Shown here: piece by piece, positions 13,589 to 37,373 of the stretch | Layout: each line of letters opens with the position of its first letter | Position numbering within the stretch: the stretch's first letter is position 1 | From: an uncultured Candidatus Saccharibacteria bacterium | GTDB taxonomy: Bacteria; Patescibacteriota; Minisyncoccia; Phycocordibacterales; UBA9973 | Direction of reading: 5' to 3' | NCBI GenBank assembly: GCA_964412965.1 | Contig: CAYPQU010000002.1 | Coordinates: forward strand, 26,004 to 90,003 | Length of the DNA stretch: 64,000 nucleotides | The notes under the pieces: generated by a model | Seen by the model: the letters and a program-made list of their open reading frames with translations, nothing else | Database searches by the model: none | Told to the model about the DNA's origin: nothing | Position numbers and translations under genes: made by a program

Positions 13589-14968
13589 TTATATTTTAGT
13601 TATTTTATAGCCATCACCGGTGTCTTTTATTTCATAACCTAAATCTTTTATTTTATTCCTTAGCTCATCACTTTTTATCCAGTCTTTATTATCTCGAGCT
13701 AGCTTTCTTTCTTCTGCCATTTTGATTATTTCTTCAGGTGTTTCTTCTTGTTCTATTTTGTCTAAACCAAAACCAAAAACTCTATCGAAATCTAAAATAG
13801 TTGCTAGTTTGTCTTCATTGCTTACTCGTTTATCTTTTACTAAATCCCATAGAATAGACAAGGCTTTTGGACTTTCTAAATTATTATCCATAGCTTCAAT
13901 AAATTTATTTTTATATTCTTCGTTTATTTTTCCTTTTATATTACCTAAAGAAACAATAAAATCTCTCAGTCTAATGAGTGCGGTTTGGGTGCTGTGAACT
14001 GCTTCTTTGGTAAAATTAACTCGAGTAGTATAGCTAGAACTATATAACCACATTCTAAAGGCAACAGGATCAATTCCCATTTTTATCAAATCTTCTAAAA
14101 TATAAAAATTACCTAAAGATTTACTCATTTTTTGACCATCAACAAGTAAATGTTCGTTGTGAATAAAGTATTTAGCAAAGTCTCCACCTAGAGAACACTT
14201 AGATTGAGCAATTTCGTTTTCGTGATGGGGAAAGATCAGATCTACACCCCCTGTATGAATATCAAAAGTTTCTCCTAAATTTTTTACGCTCATAGCAGAA
14301 CACTCTATGTGCCACCCAGGACGACCCTTTTCTATTTCACTTGATTTACCCAAAATTTCTTCAGGATTCCAAAAAACATCACCGTCTTCTTCGCTCCATT
14401 TTTTCCAGAGAGCAAAATCTTCGGCATTTTCTTTGTCATACTCATCTTTACTTAGACGATTATCTGCATTCTCTTTTAAGTCAGATATTTTAAAGTTGGA
14501 AAGCTTACCGTAGTCATTAAATTTTCTAATATCAAAATAAATAGAACCGTCCTTTGCTTTATACGCAAAACCTTTTACTAAGAGCTCTTCTATGATTAAA
14601 AGCATTTCCTTAATATAGTCAGTGGCTTTAGTGTATTTTGTGGTAGGTAATATGTTTAATAAATCTCTTTCGCTAAAAAATAGGGAAGTGTAATATTCCG
14701 TGAAATCTTTTAGGGATAGCCCTTTTGATTGAGAGGTTTTTATAGTTTTATCATCTACATCAGTAATGTTCATTATGTGTTTAACCTTAAAACCTTTGTA
14801 TTCTAAATATCTTCTTAGAAGATCAGAGAAAACAAAAGCCCTCCAATTGCCAATGTGAATTTTGTTATATACAGTAGGTCCACAAGAATAGATACCAACC
14901 TCATCGTTTTTTAGTGGTACGAATTCTTCTTTATGTCTTTTAAGTGTATTAAATAAAACTAAGCTCAT
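13589..14968 (-). CDS. cysS: cysteinyl-tRNA synthetase
   Basis: HIGN (CGPTVYNKIHIGN) and KMSKS (KMSKSLGN) class-I motifs, and a CysRS-like zinc-site region. Confidence 0.9.
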   Translation of the reverse strand: MSLVLFNTLKRHKEEFVPLKNDEVGIYSCGPTVYNKIHIGNWRAFVFSDLLRRYLEYKGFKVKHIMNITDVDDKTIKTSQSKGLSLKDFTEYYTSLFFSERDLLNILPTTKYTKATDYIKEMLLIIEELLVKGFAYKAKDGSIYFDIRKFNDYGKLSNFKISDLKENADNRLSKDEYDKENAEDFALWKKWSEEDGDVFWNPEEILGKSSEIEKGRPGWHIECSAMSVKNLGETFDIHTGGVDLIFPHHENEIAQSKCSLGGDFAKYFIHNEHLLVDGQKMSKSLGNFYILEDLIKMGIDPVAFRMWLYSSSYTTRVNFTKEAVHSTQTALIRLRDFIVSLGNIKGKINEEYKNKFIEAMDNNLESPKALSILWDLVKDKRVSNEDKLATILDFDRVFGFGLDKIEQEETPEEIIKMAEERKLARDNKDWIKSDELRNKIKDLGYEIKDTGDGYKITKI

Positions 14969-15597
14969 AATATGATTGTTAAAATTAGTAAAATTAATAA
15001 AATCAAATTTAATATAAATAATATCTTGTATTTTTTTTCTAAACTTAAATTTTTTCTTTTAAGAAAACTATTGTTTATGTCTTTTAATAAAATCTTATCG
15101 TGCATTTCGGTCAACATCTTTCTTACAAGATTAGCAAAAAGTAATTCTTGATTATTGATTTTTGATTCAGATTCTATCACCGTGTCTAATTCTAGTTCGC
15201 TAGAAAATTGTTCTATAGAACTGAGAGGTTGATCATGTATTGTTATGACAAAATTTTGGTTTTTAATAAAGACCATTTTTGACGAACTTTCCGTTGGCTC
15301 TCTTTGTGAAAATTTAATAATACAATAGAGCGTATCATTCTCAATGAAGGTGTTGTGATCTTTAGAAGGACTGTGTATCTCTTGTTTTATATCTTCAGGT
15401 ATCTTGTATTCATCTAAAATATAAACAACCTCTTCTTCTTGAGGCGAGGTTAAATCTATCCAAACGATCCCTTTATTTTTATACTTAGATATCACAAAGT
15501 TATTATAACAACAAGAGAGGAGCTTAAGCAAATGAATACTAATTCGTTTGCTTAGTGTCCGAACGCTGTTGTTATATAGTACTCTATATAACAACAA
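14965..15597 (-). CDS. hypothetical protein with a C-terminal TM helix and weak CorA-N-terminal-like similarity; start uncertain
   Basis: KGIVWIDLTSPQEEE...YKIPEDIKQEI resembles the CorA N-terminus, but no GMN motif is present. The first 31 codons, including the TTG start used by the ORF track, lie inside the 83-bp tandem repeat. A GTG at 15495 is an alternative start. Confidence 0.3.
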   Translation of the reverse strand: MLLYRVLYNNSVRTLSKRISIHLLKLLSCCYNNFVISKYKNKGIVWIDLTSPQEEEVVYILDEYKIPEDIKQEIHSPSKDHNTFIENDTLYCIIKFSQREPTESSSKMVFIKNQNFVITIHDQPLSSIEQFSSELELDTVIESESKINNQELLFANLVRKMLTEMHDKILLKDINNSFLKRKNLSLEKKYKILFILNLILLILLILTIIL

Positions 15598-15737
15598 GAG
15601 AGGAGCTTAAGCAAATGAATACTAATTCGTTTGCTTAGTGTCCGAACGCTGTTGTTATATAGTACTCTATATAACAACAAGAGAGGAGCTTAAGCAAATG
15701 AATACTAATTCGTTCGCTTAGTGTCCGAATGCTGTAT
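15505..15737. repeat. 83-bp tandem direct repeat, about 2.8 copies (units start at 15505, 15588, 15671)
   Basis: The unit ataacaacaagagaggagcttaagcaaatgaatactaattcgtttgcttagtgtccgaacgctgttgttatatagtactctat is repeated near-identically. Each unit carries inverted repeats (ataacaaca/tgttgttat) and, on the plus strand, GAGAGGAGC-N8-ATG plus 7 codons plus TAG. Confidence 0.8.
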
Positions 15738-15830
15738 TTGCCTCCAGTATTGCCTAAAAACTTGCTTTTTCTAGCCTTTTTGTGTATTATAAGTTTTACC
15801 TAGGTTTTAGACCCCTGGGGAGTTAAATTT

Positions 15831-31875: not shown

Positions 31876-33618
31876 ATGGAAAAAACACCTCGGTTTATAA
31901 AAGAATTTTCTAAAGAAAAATCACATCAAGAACGCGAACAAACAGCACGAGACATTAAAGAAAAACGTGTGGAATATTTTGTAGGAAAAAAAGATCTATC
32001 AGAAAGGCAAACCAGGTTACAAGAATCTATCGAAAATCAAGAACTAATTTTAAAGGAAAGACTAAAAAATATTGATAATCTTAATGATCAGATTTCTGAA
32101 ATTACGAACTCAGGACTTACTAAAATTTTAAATTATTTTAAACTAAAAAAGCTACAAGCAGATCTTGTTGTTGGTCAAAAAACTTATGAGGAATTAAAAC
32201 AACAACAGGACTTAGATAAAACAGAGCAACTATCTCTTTCTGAAAAACTAGAAGATGAAAAGAATCCTTTGGTAATGCAAGAATCTAAAAAAATATTAGA
32301 CAATTTTTACCAAAATCAAAAAGAAAAGTGGGTACAAAAAGAATACTCAAAAGAAGATATTGCTAAATATTTTTCTGAGGAGCACTTGTCGTCTCTATCT
32401 TTAGAAGACTATGTTTTGTTACTAAAAAGATTCCCTCGTGAAATGGTAGCTCACGTTACAAGGCAAGGAGTTCGAGATCATATTGGTATGATGTATCATA
32501 CTGCAGGAGAAGGTGAATATGCCGAGGGTTTCTTAAAAATGGTTGAAGATGGAAGATTGCGTTCACCACTCGGTGTTTATCTAACGGAGAACGAGAAGGA
32601 AAAAGCGATCACCAGATTTCTTCGTCTAGATAATTTTGAGAATAAAGATGAGGCCTTAGGTCATCTTGCTACTTTAACAGATGTCCAGCAGTACGAAAGC
32701 GGAAGTTATGCGGACAGAATGGCAATTCATTTTGCCACCGAAGAAGTTGCAGATAGTTATTATGGTTCCGAAAAAGGAAACGAAATTTTTATAGCATATC
32801 CTTCTGCTTTTATCGCATCGCAATATTATTTTAACGGACAGTTAAAAGAGGGTAATAGTGGTTATTGGAACGACCAATGGATTTGGGCCAACGAAGAACA
32901 CGGAATTGATTTAAATGCAGGGTTGATTTTTATTCCGGAAGAAGCAAGAGTTGATAAAAACACAGGTTCTCGTTACGAACTCGATGAAAACAAAAATCCA
33001 ATCAAAAATTTAGAATATTTAAACATCTTAAGAAAAGTCTTTGCCTCTGATGATTTTGATGACTTTGCTAAGCAGGTTATGGAAATAACTGGAAAATTAA
33101 GCAAAAAAGACGAACAAAATTTACTACCAAGCGAGCTAGAACTATTTAATAAGCTAGAACCATTTCGTCAAAAACTGGAAAACAATTATGGAATAAAAGA
33201 TCGACGACTCCAAAATTCAATTTTTGATTATCACACACTATTGTCTCTTACAGGTCTAAAAAATGAACCTGTAAGTACTCACAGTCCTGAATCGGTTATA
33301 GAAGAATCATTAGAAAAATCGGGTATTTTGTTTACTGAAGCAAAAAATACTATTAGCTCAAAACAATTCTGGGAAGAATACTTTGCTAAAAACCAAAGTA
33401 AGCGCCCTTCGAAAATTATCTACTATAAAGGGGAAGACCCCACTGGAGCTCTTAGGCAGTGGAGGAAAGAACAAGGTATTGATAAAACAACAAAAGATGA
33501 GAATTTAGGTTTTTCTGAGAGGAGCATTAGCCGGGATGCTCCCCAAGCTGTTGCAGGTCTAAGCCGTTTTAAAAATTTGGCGGAAAAAATAATCGAGGAT
33601 TACTTTGCGAAAAAATAA
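31876..33618 (+). CDS. hypothetical protein, 580 aa, no recognisable domain
   Basis: Long uninterrupted ORF with strong coding character and a coiled-coil-like N-terminal third. Confidence 0.4.
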   Translation: MEKTPRFIKEFSKEKSHQEREQTARDIKEKRVEYFVGKKDLSERQTRLQESIENQELILKERLKNIDNLNDQISEITNSGLTKILNYFKLKKLQADLVVGQKTYEELKQQQDLDKTEQLSLSEKLEDEKNPLVMQESKKILDNFYQNQKEKWVQKEYSKEDIAKYFSEEHLSSLSLEDYVLLLKRFPREMVAHVTRQGVRDHIGMMYHTAGEGEYAEGFLKMVEDGRLRSPLGVYLTENEKEKAITRFLRLDNFENKDEALGHLATLTDVQQYESGSYADRMAIHFATEEVADSYYGSEKGNEIFIAYPSAFIASQYYFNGQLKEGNSGYWNDQWIWANEEHGIDLNAGLIFIPEEARVDKNTGSRYELDENKNPIKNLEYLNILRKVFASDDFDDFAKQVMEITGKLSKKDEQNLLPSELELFNKLEPFRQKLENNYGIKDRRLQNSIFDYHTLLSLTGLKNEPVSTHSPESVIEESLEKSGILFTEAKNTISSKQFWEEYFAKNQSKRPSKIIYYKGEDPTGALRQWRKEQGIDKTTKDENLGFSERSISRDAPQAVAGLSRFKNLAEKIIEDYFAKK

Positions 33619-33619
33619 A

Positions 33620-33687
33620 GTTTGCTTTCTCTCGGACAAAAAATAAAAAACCTTTCGGCTTTTATTTTTGTGCCCGAGGTGGGAACG
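33620..33687. repeat. direct duplicate (~67 nt, ~95% identical) of the tRNA-Leu 3' end (15 nt) plus its downstream terminator flank
   Basis: gtttgctttctctcggacaaaaa(a)taaaaa(a/g)cctttcggcttttatttttgtgcccgaggtgggaa occurs at 33620-33687 and again at 33780-33845, the second copy being the true tRNA 3' end. Confidence 0.7.
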
Positions 33688-33829
33688 CTTCGCTTATCGC
33701 CGACTACATCGGCAGGTACTTTTCCACCTCGCTTCGCTCGTACGGAAAAGTCTTTCGATTCCCGCACAAAAGCAAAGCAGTTTGCTTTCTCTCGGACAAA
33801 AATAAAAAGCCTTTCGGCTTTTATTTTTG

Positions 33830-33911
33830 TGCCCGAGGTGGGAATCGAACCCACATCCCTTGCGAGACACGATTTTAAGTCGTGCGCGTATACCTATTCC
33901 GCCACTCGGGC
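33830..33911 (-). tRNA. tRNA-Leu (anticodon TAA)
   Basis: The minus strand GCCCGAGTGGCGGAATAGGTATACGCGCACGACTTAAAATCGTGTCTCGCAAGGGATGTGGGTTCGATTCCCACCTCGGGCA folds as a cloverleaf with a long variable arm and anticodon loop CUUAAAA. CCA is not encoded. A small bidirectional hairpin aagcc-gaaa-ggctt plus a T-run follows. Confidence 0.85.
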
Positions 33912-34140
33912 AAACAAAACATATAATATATTTTAAACAGCCGTTTGCCCTCGCGTCGGCCTCCTCCTTTCAGTCGGATAAAACATGAAGCAGTTCATCT
34001 TTTATCCACTCGGGCAAACAAAACATATTAAATGTTTTTAATAACAAAAGGTATTATAGCATAAAGATTTTTAAATAGGAATATTAGTTTTTATTTTTTA
34101 AATTTCTCAAAAGGCTTATTTTTTGATATAATCGACTCAT

Positions 34141-35556
34141 ATGTCAAAGGAATACTACACTACAATAGGACTCGAAATACACGCAGAATTAAAGACTAAT
34201 TCTAAGATGTTTTGCGGTTGCAAAAACAACCCCGATGAAAAAACTCCAAATACTAACATCTGTCCTGTTTGTATGGCTCAACCTGGAACTTTACCTGTTA
34301 TAAATGCCGAAGCTGTTAAAAGTGTAGTCAAAGTTGGACTAGCTCTTGGAGCAAAAATTGCAGATTTTACAGAATTTGATCGTAAAAATTATTTTTATCC
34401 AGATATTCCAAAATCTTATCAGATTTCCCAATATAAATATCCGATTGTTTCTGGCGGGGAATTAAATGGGGTAAAAATTACTCGAGTACACCTTGAAGAA
34501 GACACAGCCACCTCAAAACACGATCGAGGAGATTTTTCTCTTATCGATTTTAATCGTGCCGGGGTTCCTTTAATGGAATTAGTAACAGAACCCGTCATTC
34601 ATAGCGCCAAAGAAGCTGGAGATTTTGGAAGAGAGCTACAATTACTTCTTCGATACTTAGGTGTTTCAGAGGCTAATATGGAAAAAGGTCAAATGAGAGT
34701 TGAATTAAATATTTCCGTGTCTGATGTTCCAAATAAATTTGGAACTAAGGTTGAAGTTAAAAATATCAACTCTTTTAAAGCCGTAGAAAAAGCAGCTGAG
34801 TACGAAACCAAGAGAATGATCGAGCTAATAGAATCTGGGGGAAAAAATAAAATAGTTCAAGAAACAAGAGGCTGGGACGAAACTAAGCAAGCTACGTTTT
34901 CTCAAAGAGTAAAAGAAAATGCAAATGATTATAGATATTTTCCAGATCCCGACTTACCTAAACTTTTCTTGTCAGAAATATTTAATTTAGAAGAACTGAG
35001 AAAAAACCTTCCTGAACTTCCTCAAGCTAAAAGAATTCGCTATGGAAATGATTATGGAATAAAAGAAGAAGATATTGAAAGTTATATTATTGATCAGGAG
35101 TTAGGAAACTGGTTTGAAAAAGTTTGTTCAATTCTTAAAGATAAAGAGAAAATTAAAACCGCTTCTAACTATATAACTTCTGATTTATTGGGTCTTAAAA
35201 AAATAAACCCTGATATAAAAATCCCTAGTGAAAATAATTTTGCTGAATTAATCCAAATGATCTCTGACAATAAAATTTCTTCAAGGGCTGCAAAAGACAT
35301 ACTGGCAATGATCGCCACAGAAGACGCGTCACCAATGAAAATAGCTGAAGAAAAAGATTTGCTTCAAAAAAATGACGAGGGGGCACTGAAGGAAATCATC
35401 CAAAAAATAATTGATAATAACAAAGAAGTGGTCGAAACTTACAAAGCAGGAAAAGAAAATGCAATCATGTCTTTGGTCGGACAAGTCATGAAGGAAACAA
35501 AAGGTAGCGCTAACCCTCAATTGGCCTTAAAATTATTAAAAGAATTATTATCATAA
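34141..35556 (+). CDS. gatB: Asp-tRNA(Asn)/Glu-tRNA(Gln) amidotransferase subunit B
   Basis: YYTTIGLEIHAELKTNSKMFCGC.....NTNICPVC...PGTLPV and a GatB/YqeY C-terminal domain. A TGATATAAT promoter-like box lies at 34120-34131. Confidence 0.9.
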   Translation: MSKEYYTTIGLEIHAELKTNSKMFCGCKNNPDEKTPNTNICPVCMAQPGTLPVINAEAVKSVVKVGLALGAKIADFTEFDRKNYFYPDIPKSYQISQYKYPIVSGGELNGVKITRVHLEEDTATSKHDRGDFSLIDFNRAGVPLMELVTEPVIHSAKEAGDFGRELQLLLRYLGVSEANMEKGQMRVELNISVSDVPNKFGTKVEVKNINSFKAVEKAAEYETKRMIELIESGGKNKIVQETRGWDETKQATFSQRVKENANDYRYFPDPDLPKLFLSEIFNLEELRKNLPELPQAKRIRYGNDYGIKEEDIESYIIDQELGNWFEKVCSILKDKEKIKTASNYITSDLLGLKKINPDIKIPSENNFAELIQMISDNKISSRAAKDILAMIATEDASPMKIAEEKDLLQKNDEGALKEIIQKIIDNNKEVVETYKAGKENAIMSLVGQVMKETKGSANPQLALKLLKELLS

Positions 35557-36260
35557 ATTTTAGTAGTCCGACTACTAAAATTTAAAATTCTACTTCTTCT
35601 TTTCTCTTTATGGTTTCAAGCCAAAGTGATTTTGCTGTTTTATAATAATCCTCTTTGTTTTTAAAATTACTTAAAACTATTGTTTTGTTACATATTCCCA
35701 CTGAGTCATTAGTATATTCGCACAGACTAGATTTACTAAAATCAGAAATAGTTTTAAGATTTTTATCTAAGTTATTAAAATTAACATATGCACTTAATTG
35801 TATTAAATATCTTTCGTCTTCTATTTGTTTTGATTTAAATTTTCCTTGAAAAAGCACACCAGATCTATCGTATTTTTCATTAAAATATCTAGTATAGCCA
35901 CCTATTCTCTGCATAAATTTTTCTATTCCATTATCTACAAGAGGGGATAAAATAAGATGAAAATGATTCTTGTTAATACAATATGCTATTATGGCTACTA
36001 AAGGTTTTTTAGTAGTCCGACTACTAAATTTTAACTTTTTCTTAAGATGTTGCTGAAAAATACTTTGTATTGGTTCTACTGTATTAAATTCTAATAAACT
36101 CAGAAAAAATCTATTGAGATCTTCTTTATCTATAATGATATCTCTTTTATCAGAACCTCTGTTATAAATATGATAATATTGTCCTATTTCAAATATATGA
36201 TTTCTCATATATATAATCATACCATACTTTTAAATTTTAGTAGTCGGACTACTAAAATTA
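35555..36260 (-). mobile_element. REPtron-like unit: an IS200/RAYT-type Y1 transposase gene flanked by inverted copies of a 23-nt REP-like palindrome
   Basis: ttttagtagtccgactactaaaa at 35558-35580, the inverted version ttttagtagtcggactactaaaa at 36235-36257, and a third same-orientation copy embedded in the ORF at 36008-36028. Confidence 0.6.
35582..36220 (-). CDS. IS200/IS605-family HUH (Y1) transposase-like protein, REP-associated tyrosine transposase (RAYT) type
   Basis: N-terminal YYHIYNRGSDKRDIIIDKEDLNRFFLSLLEF (RAYT YH.xNRG motif); HUH motif NKNHFHLILSP; conserved Tyr-containing C-terminal helix (RYLIQLSAYVNFN). Confidence 0.65.
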   Translation of the reverse strand: MIIYMRNHIFEIGQYYHIYNRGSDKRDIIIDKEDLNRFFLSLLEFNTVEPIQSIFQQHLKKKLKFSSRTTKKPLVAIIAYCINKNHFHLILSPLVDNGIEKFMQRIGGYTRYFNEKYDRSGVLFQGKFKSKQIEDERYLIQLSAYVNFNNLDKNLKTISDFSKSSLCEYTNDSVGICNKTIVLSNFKNKEDYYKTAKSLWLETIKRKEEVEF

Positions 36261-36326
36261 TGGTTTTATTTTAAAATAAAATAATGATACAATAAAATAT
36301 ATAATTTTTAAAAAGATATTTATATT

Positions 36327-37373
36327 ATGTACAAAAAAATTCGTGTTGCAATAAATGGTTTTGGAAGAATTGGTCGTGCGTTCTTAAAACTCTCATGGGA
36401 AAGAGGGGATTTAGAAGTAGTTGCCATCAACGACCTAGGAACTATCGATAGTCTTTCATACCTTCTAAAATACGATACAGTCTATGGCAAGTGGAATCAT
36501 GATATAAAAATAGAAAAAGGAGCTGAAGGAGAAAAATCTTATATCATTATAGATGGTAAAAAAATACAATATATTCAAGAAAAAGATACAACCAAACTTC
36601 CTTGGAAAGAATTAGGAATAGATGTCGTAGTAGAATCTACTGGTGCATTCACTTCTTATGACAAATCGAAATTCCACCTAGATTGTGGAGCAAAGAAAGT
36701 TGTAATTTCTGCACCTTCAAAGGGCGCTGATAGTACAGTAAAAGGTGAGACAATATTGCTTGGAGTAAATGAAGACAAATTTGGTACTTGCGATATTACA
36801 TCTAACGCTTCATGTACTACAAATGCAGCGTCTCCTCTTATCGCCATTCTTCATGAAGCAATCGGAGTAGAGAAGGCAATATTGAACACTGTCCATGGAT
36901 ACACTGCGACTCAAGCTCTCGTAGATGGCCCTAGCAAGAAGGATTTAAGAGAAGGCCGTGCAGCAGCCGAGAATATTATTCCAAGCTCTACAGGAGCAGC
37001 CATAGCGGTTACAGAGGCCTTTCCAGTGCTCAAAGGGCTATTTGACGGTATTTCTATCCGTGTGCCAGTCCCAGCTGGGTCTATAGTTGATATTACTTTT
37101 ATAGCAAAAAGAGATACTACAAAAGAAGAGGTGAACGAGATATTGAAAAAAGCATCTAATGACCCACGATGGGAAAATTTATTTACTGCCACAAATGAAC
37201 CAATCGTATCATCCGATATCCTTGCGGAAAAATATGCTTGTATTGCTGACTTAGAAATGACTAGAGTTGTCGGAGGAAATTTGGTAAAAGTTCTTGGGTG
37301 GTATGACAATGAAATGGGGTACACTTACACTCTATTAGACCATGTTGTCAAAACTGGAAAAACTATAAAATAA
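36327..37373 (+). CDS. gap: glyceraldehyde-3-phosphate dehydrogenase
   Basis: INGFGRIGR Rossmann motif and active site SNASCTTNA. Confidence 0.9.
   Translation: MYKKIRVAINGFGRIGRAFLKLSWERGDLEVVAINDLGTIDSLSYLLKYDTVYGKWNHDIKIEKGAEGEKSYIIIDGKKIQYIQEKDTTKLPWKELGIDVVVESTGAFTSYDKSKFHLDCGAKKVVISAPSKGADSTVKGETILLGVNEDKFGTCDITSNASCTTNAASPLIAILHEAIGVEKAILNTVHGYTATQALVDGPSKKDLREGRAAAENIIPSSTGAAIAVTEAFPVLKGLFDGISIRVPVPAGSIVDITFIAKRDTTKEEVNEILKKASNDPRWENLFTATNEPIVSSDILAEKYACIADLEMTRVVGGNLVKVLGWYDNEMGYTYTLLDHVVKTGKTIK

Follow-up and report, generated by a model that had tools for sequence, protein, structure and literature searches.

Genes and hairpins at the locus

We analyzed a 64,000-nucleotide (nt) stretch of contig CAYPQU010000002.1 (positions 26,004 to 90,003, forward strand), taken from the genome assembly of an uncultured Candidatus Saccharibacteria bacterium and hereafter called the window. 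Between gatB and gap, the window carries a minus-strand gene for a predicted Y1 HUH nuclease resembling the tyrosine transposases that are associated with repetitive extragenic palindromes (REPs), called RAYTs. Copies of one REP-like hairpin lie on both sides of this gene and inside it. The features are as follows, in window coordinates.

35555 to 35583, no strand: downstream hairpin, a 29-nt perfect palindrome, AAATTTTAGTAGTC-C-GACTACTAAAATTT, with 14-nt arms and a central C
35582 to 36208, minus strand: RAYT-like Y1 HUH nuclease gene, 208 amino acids (aa) from the homologue-supported ATG; the open reading frame (ORF) extends to 36220 (212 aa)
35738 to 35770, minus strand: decayed second in-gene site, IN2, corresponding to residues 147 to 157 (LDKNLKTISDF), directly past the Tyr helix
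36008 to 36028, no strand: in-gene hairpin at site IN1, TTTAGTAGTC-C-GACTACTAAA, within the RAYT-like gene
36209 to 36232, minus strand: short spacer separating the upstream hairpin from the start codon, with an extended -10-like TGGTATGAT at 36216 to 36224
36233 to 36259, no strand: upstream hairpin, a 27-nt perfect palindrome, AATTTTAGTAGTC-G-GACTACTAAAATT, with 13-nt arms and a central G

A preliminary description of the window, made from its sequence, had proposed a REPtron-like unit at this place. Indeed, flanking and in-frame copies are present, the protein has a Y1 HUH fold, and the repeat is dispersed in relatives. One feature of REPtrons, flanking copies of one palindromic repeat family on both sides of the gene, is found here. 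The three copies have the sequence TTTAGTAGTC[C/G]GACTACTAAA in common. When the window was searched for TAGTAGTCSGACTACTA with up to 3 mismatches, exactly three matches were obtained (35561 to 35577, 36010 to 36026, and 36238 to 36254), as the same description had reported. The chance expectation is 0.04, and three matches were reached in 0 of 100 shuffles. Because the palindrome is perfect, its orientation can be read from the central base only, which on the plus strand is C in the downstream, C in the internal, and G in the upstream copy. From hairpin to hairpin, the unit is 705 bp long.

The downstream hairpin spans the interval from the gatB stop codon (35554 to 35556) to the convergent stop codon of the minus-strand ORF (35582 to 35584), overlapping both stop codons. 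A 23-mer form of the palindrome, previously placed 2 nt past the stop, is in fact 1 nt away from it. The upstream hairpin sits in the divergent intergenic region of the RAYT-like gene and gap, 27 nt from the probable start codon at 36208; the distance of 15 nt given before holds for the first ATG (36220). The IN1 hairpin is in frame, as described, and encodes KFSSRTTKK, i.e., (K)FSSRTT(KK), residues 57 to 65 of the 208-aa protein. Folded as single-stranded DNA (ssDNA), the downstream, internal, and upstream copies reach -10.4, -5.6, and -8.7 kcal/mol (z = -9.8, -4.2, and -5.8). The IN2 site of the window forms no hairpin any more.

Predicted Y1 HUH nuclease

The real start of the gene is probably the ATG at 36208 (208 aa), since homologues begin there (MRNH...). 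The protein scores 35.4 bits for Pfam Y1_Tnp (PF01797), the cutoff being 23 (E 1.3e-8). Its only other Pfam match was zf-CCCH_UNK at E 0.51, and there was no second significant domain. The motifs expected from the preliminary description, YYHIYNRG, NHFH, and a Tyr helix, were all recovered, with NHFH at residues 81 to 84 and Y141 as the catalytic-type Tyr. Across an 83-sequence alignment, H82, H84, and Y141 (208-aa numbering) are invariant, as are S160 and S161. The Y motif reads YVNFNN or YINMNN; N at position 5 is invariant, N stands in place of P, and there is no Q.

An exact-sequence look-up of the window protein returned no record, and a homology search found 982 homologues. A precomputed PF01797 match was present in 120/120 of those listed. 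Homologues are mostly unnamed or carry the JGI label "REP element-mobilizing transposase RayT," and the organism-named ones belong to Patescibacteria.

The AlphaFold2 model of the protein (pLDDT 86.4) places Y141 within helix 132 to 144. It has one low-confidence stretch only, residues 51 to 70, with a pLDDT of <50 at residues 60 to 63. This stretch is the peptide encoded by the internal hairpin, and in the model it loops from a helix to the strand entering the HUH motif. At high probability, Foldseek retrieved only Y1 HUH transposases (2a6m, 4er8, 2vjv, and 2xm3 at ≥0.98), the top hits being 2a6m, 4er8, and ISDra2 TnpA. The best E-value was that of IS608 TnpA, while the best superposition was that of the Escherichia coli RAYT, 4er8 (TMt 0.54; rmsd 4.3).

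Hairpin positions across the family

We scanned 83 loci for hairpins: 80 metagenomic loci (34 to 55% identity), two genome loci containing a homologue (L004 and L019), and the window. Hairpins had to be perfect with a stem of at least 8 bp, positions were counted relative to the start codon, and no reference sequence was used. Hairpins piled up in four zones, with 52 at -60 to -1, 48 at +150 to +210, 13 at +450 to +540, and 51 at +630 to +720. Elsewhere, most 30-nt bins held 0 to 2 hairpins, and 4 to 6 were found directly outside the four zones. The family thus has four fixed places for hairpins, approximately 40 nt 5' of the start, at +180 (IN1), at +460 (IN2), and at the stop. Of these loci, 66 had two or more cognate copies, and among them, the upstream site was filled in 62/66, IN1 in 51/66, IN2 in 13/66, and the downstream site in 56/66. 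Independent repeat finding on four loci gave the same architecture, and in L115 (62% identity), all four sites are filled. The decayed IN2 site of the window aligns with the intact cognate hairpins of those 13 loci and of L115, which encode LGSPTTKL-type peptides.

The hairpin variant is constant within a locus and different between loci, examples being ACTTGGAGG-TTCTT-CCTCCAAGT, CAGATAGAGGTT-A-AACCTCTATCTG, and GCCGAGGC-TTC-GCCTCGGC. When the loci were aligned on the hairpin center, the family consensus showed T-[TC]-[AG]-G at 9 to 6 nt from the center, followed by A-N-G-T-[CT]. The window hairpin has TT-TAG-TAGTC at these positions. Its GTAG...CTAC lies paired in the stem (TTA-GTAG-TC), which is double-foot-like and not the canonical GT[AG]G. 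Compared in this way, the family hairpins are diverged relatives of constant geometry.

In the protein alignment, the FSSRTT column of the window corresponds to varying palindrome-encoded peptides (GSPTS, GSKAS, RGKAS, and others), and in many homologues, the hairpin-encoded peptide recurs approximately 80 residues further on. Moreover, the IN1 hairpin is translated in differing frames between loci (LGGRTSKL, QIEVKPLS, and DVDVGRLQ), which argues that the constraint is on the DNA and not on the peptide. A function for the hairpin-encoded peptide was ruled out by the use of at least three reading frames, giving unrelated peptides.

The structures might instead act in the mRNA, as RNase or attenuator sites or in translational autoregulation. 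Three of the four sites are at or within the transcribed region, and the upstream copy is perhaps in a short leader. However, Watson-Crick pairs make up 92% over 10 bp, though all stem positions vary, and the noncanonical oppositions on the sense strand (42 G.T versus 47 A.C) show no G.U-type bias. These roughly equal numbers argue for a palindrome in DNA over a structure in RNA. Furthermore, hairpins are also found between genes, in both orientations and distant from the gene, and an Rfam search of positions 35000 to 36800 gave no match at E up to 1. We consider an action in the mRNA very unlikely. On the evidence of the aligned loci, the conserved object is the DNA palindrome, neither the peptide nor the sense RNA.

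The preliminary description had presented the in-frame copy as if a REP had inserted into this gene. Such a recent accident, particular to the window gene, would have parallels, as REP insertions into unrelated genes have been reported and the 19-mer core of the hairpin also occurs inside other ORFs of relatives (see below). However, a cognate hairpin lies at the same codon region in 51/66 loci, down to approximately 35% identity, and decayed remnants are recognizable, e.g., LGTPTTK in L025. In addition, the IN1 segment measures 32 versus 31.5 aa with and without an intact hairpin. This equality of lengths indicates that IN1 is an ancestral, family-wide site that is decaying in some lineages, and on the same ground, repeated fresh insertion at IN1 was rejected. 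The IN2 segment likewise has approximately the same length with or without an intact hairpin. An accidental insertion in the window gene has next to no probability left.

In L041 and L080 (both at +184) and in L069, L078, L084, and L101 (+187/+210 from the start), two inverted cognate hairpins lie approximately 23 nt apart at IN1. These REPIN-like in-gene doublets keep the frame open except in L080, where the translation contains a stop codon.

Inheritance, concerted change, and an empty site

The window has one copy of the RAYT-like gene. Orthologues with 99, 87, 80, 78, and 72% identity all have gap and gatB on their two sides, though at some loci, one additional gene accompanies the RAYT-like gene; at 62% identity, the genomic context is different. 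Judged by synteny, the gene is single-copy and vertically inherited, a pattern typical of RAYTs and not of insertion sequences (ISs).

Among these orthologues, the hairpins change in step. TTAGTAGTC-S-GACTACTAA is common to the window, L106, L112, and L113. In L108, TTAG..CTAA is replaced by the compensatory TGAG..CTCA at both flanking copies, and the internal copy is half changed. In L111 (JBBABB01), GTC-S-GAC has become GTT-S-AAC at all three gene-linked copies (9973, 10200, and 10645), while five dispersed copies of the same genome (L007, L010, L012, L014, and L015) retain GTC-S-GAC. The aligned copies thus point to local concerted change.

One close relative, L016 (CAZBHU010000063.1:1532-1560), has gatB, one hairpin, and gap, and the RAYT-like gene is missing. 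Its DNA is 87% (gatB) and 86% (gap) identical to that of the window, and the breakpoints of the alignment fall inside both flanking hairpins of the window (35555 to 36259). The alignment indicates a precise 676-bp loss of the gene together with one hairpin, a gain being less likely.

These data also bear on an autonomous IS200/IS605-type element, whose left-end and right-end subterminal structures the hairpins would then be. The Y1_Tnp domain and fold would suit such an element, as would the IS200-like length of 705 bp from hairpin to hairpin and the resemblance of L016 to an empty site. However, the window contains only one copy, orthologues of between 99 and 72% identity have not moved from its genomic position, and tnpB is missing. 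Both ends have identical perfect palindromes, which are also found alone elsewhere. Class 2 enzymes have a Y---NP motif, compared to Y---Q in class 1 (PMC6006769), and the YVNFNN of the window resembles the class 2 Y---N type, in contrast to the class 1 Y---Q of TnpA-IS200. An IS200-type element was rejected on synteny and Y motif and retains only a slight probability, a little below that of structures acting in the mRNA.

Dispersed hairpin copies in relatives

Other Patescibacteria (candidate phyla radiation [CPR]) genomes contain the exact 19-mer of the palindrome at 28 sites, distributed over 24 loci. The palindrome is thus not confined to one locus which, with the Y1_Tnp match of 35.4 bits, removes the grounds on which the preliminary description would have been withdrawn. 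Twenty of the 28 sites are intergenic, often 3 to 25 nt past a stop codon, and a few are inside other ORFs. Five sites are in the 693-kb RAAC4_OD1_1 and five in JBBABB01. No locus among the genome contigs searched had three 19-mer sites within 700 bp. In 530 kb of flanks of metagenomic homologues, we found 33 cognate copies outside the cassette (estimated chance number, approximately 0.1), including inverted, REPIN-like doublets. We conclude that REP-like dispersal exists at low density, roughly one copy per 15 to 25 kb.

Inside non-RAYT ORFs of 125 to 448 aa, the exact 19-mer occurs at L001:2393, L005:274, L010:7638, L013:1586, L015:2787, and L020:1881. At these sites, REPs may have inserted in frame into other genes.

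Dispersed copies of RAAC4_OD1_1 and JBBABB01 (L006, L007, L011, L012, L017, and L018) have a conserved 3' tail of approximately 22 nt, AATTTTAATTTGTGTTATAAT, which is extended -10-like (TGnTATAAT-like). The same tail is present at the upstream and downstream copies of L111 (9969 to 10015 and 10641 to 10687). As read from these copies, the repeated unit of the RAAC4/JBBABB/L111 clade is hairpin plus tail, approximately 47 nt. The window spacer resembles this arrangement, in which a hairpin is followed by AATTTTAATTTGTGTTATAAT, and it is a putative promoter of the RAYT-like gene, which would place the upstream hairpin at approximately the -35 position. A consensus promoter scan did not single out the spacer, such a scan being uninformative in AT-rich DNA.

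The hairpins might instead be host regulatory elements, namely, a bidirectional terminator between convergent genes and an operator at the -35 position of the gene's own promoter. The HUH protein would then be a domesticated DNA-binding regulator that no longer mobilizes anything, and the dispersed copies would be members of a small regulon or a set of terminator-promoter modules. The placement of the copies fits this explanation: the downstream copy is exactly between the convergent stops of gatB and the RAYT-like gene with A and T runs at its flanks, and the upstream copy is 27 nt before the start and followed by the extended -10-like TGGTATGAT. The AATTTTAATTTGTGTTATAAT tails on dispersed and L111 copies, the many dispersed copies 3 to 25 nt past stop codons, the low copy number, and the vertical inheritance of the gene are in line with it as well. 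However, a consensus terminator scan found none here, and the stems are AT-rich with a loop of 1 to 3 nt. A promoter role of the tail is doubtful, because in several dispersed copies, it faces the 3' end of the neighbor gene. Cognate copies at two fixed in-gene sites, read in several frames, are left unexplained, and so are the REPIN-like doublets. Finally, the invariant HUH and Tyr residues argue for retained nuclease chemistry. Taken together, we regard a purely regulatory role as improbable, while granting it more weight than an action in the mRNA.

A probable REPtron-like cassette

The locus is probably a REPtron-like cassette of Patescibacteria (Paceibacteria-type), in which a putative class 2 Y1 HUH nuclease gene is framed by cognate REP hairpins and has an in-frame copy inside. 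This reading builds on what the loci display directly, namely, their anatomy, the architecture common to the family, the matching of copies within a locus, synteny, the copies scattered in relatives, and the empty site.

TnpAREP enzymes and their REPs, which are either perfect palindromes or bulged, evolve jointly, and the enzymes act on these REPs in the form of ssDNA (Corneloup et al. 2021, PMC8266576); the mechanism proposed here builds on this activity. By analogy to E. coli TnpAREP and IS608 TnpA, the enzyme would bind the folded hairpin on single-stranded DNA and, again by analogy, cleave and rejoin beside the conserved foot T-[TC]-[AG]-G, 6 to 9 nt from the hairpin center. Such cleavage and rejoining would seed low-copy REP-like hairpins, mostly right behind stop codons. 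The in-gene copies would be ancestral REP sites tolerated by the protein, with the in-frame copy of the window in a disordered surface loop right ahead of the HUH strand. Local homogenization, either by enzyme-catalyzed hairpin exchange or by short-patch conversion, would keep them matched to the flanking copies, and where it lapses, the in-gene site would decay, as may have happened at IN2 of the window. Catalysis, cleavage site, and manner of homogenization are inferred.

Several results weigh against this interpretation. Concerning the enzyme, the protein missed the NCBIfam RAYT equivalog NF047646 (24.7 bits versus a cutoff of 80), and by this measure it falls outside the equivalog group of the classical proteobacterial RAYT. 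The preliminary description had called the protein RAYT-type; by its motifs, it resembles TnpAY1 subclass 2.1 more than the classical RAYT subclasses. Sequence searches of the PDB at E up to 10, by phmmer with the protein and by hmmsearch with the 83-sequence profile, found nothing; the link to the solved Y1 transposases came from the fold search alone. Subclass 2.1 (Bertels group 1, which includes the TIRYTs) was reported to be without associated REPs (PMC6006769), and no cognate hairpins were found around the plasmid-borne relative from Sporomusa described below.

Concerning the hairpins, no copies lie outside the cassette in the window at up to 3 mismatches, and copy numbers in relatives are low compared to those of classical REPs. 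Furthermore, the hairpin resembles a bidirectional terminator (A run, stem, T run), and some dispersed copies are at terminator-like places. In the 83-locus set, the loop orientation of upstream versus IN1 copies was inverted in 24 cases and the same in 22, and that of upstream versus downstream copies was 25 to 27. Loop orientation is thus unconstrained, unlike the prediction of strictly strand-specific ssDNA loop recognition. The inverted upstream copy had been called the typical layout; the inversion applies to the window, but not to the family, where it is seen about half of the time.

A further possibility, which we consider unlikely, is that the in-gene hairpins are working substrates of the encoded enzyme and the gene is a self-targeting cassette. 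If so, the hairpins at the four sites of the gene would be under constant exchange or overwriting by the enzyme, which would account for the joint switch of the three gene-linked copies in L111 and for the lagging dispersed copies. Excision of the whole gene between the flanking hairpins would be possible and would lead to an empty site as in L016. A new recognition hairpin would also mean a new hairpin-encoded peptide, so that the substrate would be physically coupled to the enzyme sequence. The locus would then be a natural in vivo record of RAYT activity. To our knowledge, RAYT activity in vivo, or REP transposition by a RAYT, has never been directly demonstrated. How REPs spread and why RAYT genes persist is still debated.

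The family offers a compact natural system in small genomes, with cognate hairpins at four fixed, alignable positions, two of them in the gene. Hairpin turnover can be read from comparative data, in that gene-linked copies switch jointly, dispersed copies lag, and precise gene loss can leave one hairpin. The evidence for local concerted hairpin turnover and for precise cassette loss is unusually clear. In addition, the fixed architecture provides a simple rule for predicting the cognate hairpins of hundreds of uncultured enzymes.

Other features of the window

Three tandem copies of an 83-nt unit lie at 15504 to 15752, two of them 100% identical and the third 82%. The junctions of this array each form a 30-nt palindrome, TGTTGTTATATAGTACTCTATATAACAACA, and the array reaches into the 5' end of an ORF of 210 aa on the minus strand (14965 to 15597).

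A tRNA-Leu(taa) gene at 33829 to 33911 (minus strand) is bracketed by two direct-repeat pairs. The first (33639 to 33685 and 33798 to 33844; 47 nt, 98%) includes a terminator-like hairpin and the tRNA 3' end; the second (33902 to 33937 and 34006 to 34041; 36 nt, 89%) includes the tRNA 5' end and upstream sequence. Perhaps a second copy of the tRNA, or an integration event, left these repeats behind.

Upstream of gatB, a 580-aa plus-strand ORF (31876 to 33618) is conserved in the 99%-identical relatives L106 and L107 and has no Pfam family on record.

Comparison with known systems

With the IS200/IS605 TnpA proteins of IS608 and ISDra2, the window protein shares the HUH/Tyr fold and, by analogy, hairpin recognition, within a compact unit of approximately 700 bp. 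In contrast, IS608 and ISDra2 have the class 1 Y---Q motif, are multicopy and horizontally mobile, and lack solo hairpins. Their left-end and right-end hairpins differ from each other and are imperfect. The window gene, for its part, is syntenic across relatives.

The E. coli REPtron (TnpAREP YafM, PDB 4ER8, with its REPs and bacterial interspersed mosaic elements) has the same fold and likewise a single-copy, vertically inherited gene between cognate hairpins. Its REPs have a foot-like conserved tetranucleotide and are mostly right downstream of genes, as in the window family. Unlike the window hairpins, E. coli REPs are imperfect and bulged, have an unpaired 5' GTAG, reach hundreds of copies, and are not found in the gene. 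Moreover, the window protein has no detectable sequence similarity to 4ER8.

Pseudomonas REPIN-RAYT systems (Bertels and Rainey 2011; PMC3116915) resemble the window family in the co-evolution of hairpin/enzyme pairs and in vertical inheritance, and inverted hairpin doublets like REPINs are seen in the family members L044, L053, L069, and L082. However, copy numbers in the window family are orders of magnitude lower, only singlets were seen in the window clade, and the Pseudomonas systems do not feature copies within the gene.

In-frame REPs are already known from the tnpAREP genes of subclass 2.4, which are associated with "double foot" perfect palindromes (Quentin, Siguier, Chandler, and Fichant 2018, PMC6006769). 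This subclass (Bertels group 4) has a WQ motif, a median HuH-Y distance of 88 aa, and in-frame REPs between HuH and Y (PMC6006769). Like the window family, it combines a Y1 HUH gene flanked by cognate REPs with low gene copy number and perfect palindromes that pair the foot with its complement, as in GTAGAGACAGGGC-ATT-GCCCTGTCTCTAC (Table S1). Its in-gene REPs do not break the frame, and its HuH motif is NH[IFV]H. In contrast, the window family has FQ (LFQGKF) instead of WQ and possesses the SS tail motif, and the distance from H84 to Y141 is 57 aa compared to the median of 88. One of its in-gene sites precedes the HuH strand and the other follows the Tyr helix, neither being in the beta3/alphaC loop between HuH and Y, and both are positionally fixed rather than "highly variable." The hosts differ as well, since Patescibacteria are absent from the main text of PMC6006769.

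With subclass 2.1, the family shares NH[YF]H, FQ, a Y[IV]xLN-type motif, and the SS tail. The nearest annotated relative found, WP_170233413.1 from a plasmid of Sporomusa termitida (30% identity), has Y1_Tnp and a weak, below-cutoff Bac_DnaA_C-like match (23.8 versus 31.5 bits). A Bac_DnaA_C-like domain is the hallmark of subclass 2.1.2 (PMC6006769). The Sporomusa protein is without the hairpin-bearing stretch of approximately 23 aa of the window family. The window protein differs from subclass 2.1 in its length (208 aa versus a median of 238) and in having no C-terminal DnaA_C/helix-turn-helix domain, and the window family has flanking, internal, and dispersed hairpins. Judged from the published motif table and from this nearest annotated relative, the family does not appear to fit subclass 2.4 and looks like subclass 2.1. 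In summary, what is new compared to the known in-frame REPs is a 2.1-like lineage that carries REPs, although its subclass was reported to be REP-less, together with new, fixed in-gene positions and a CPR host, so that REPs inside the gene are no longer limited to subclass 2.4 and are now also seen in the candidate phyla radiation.

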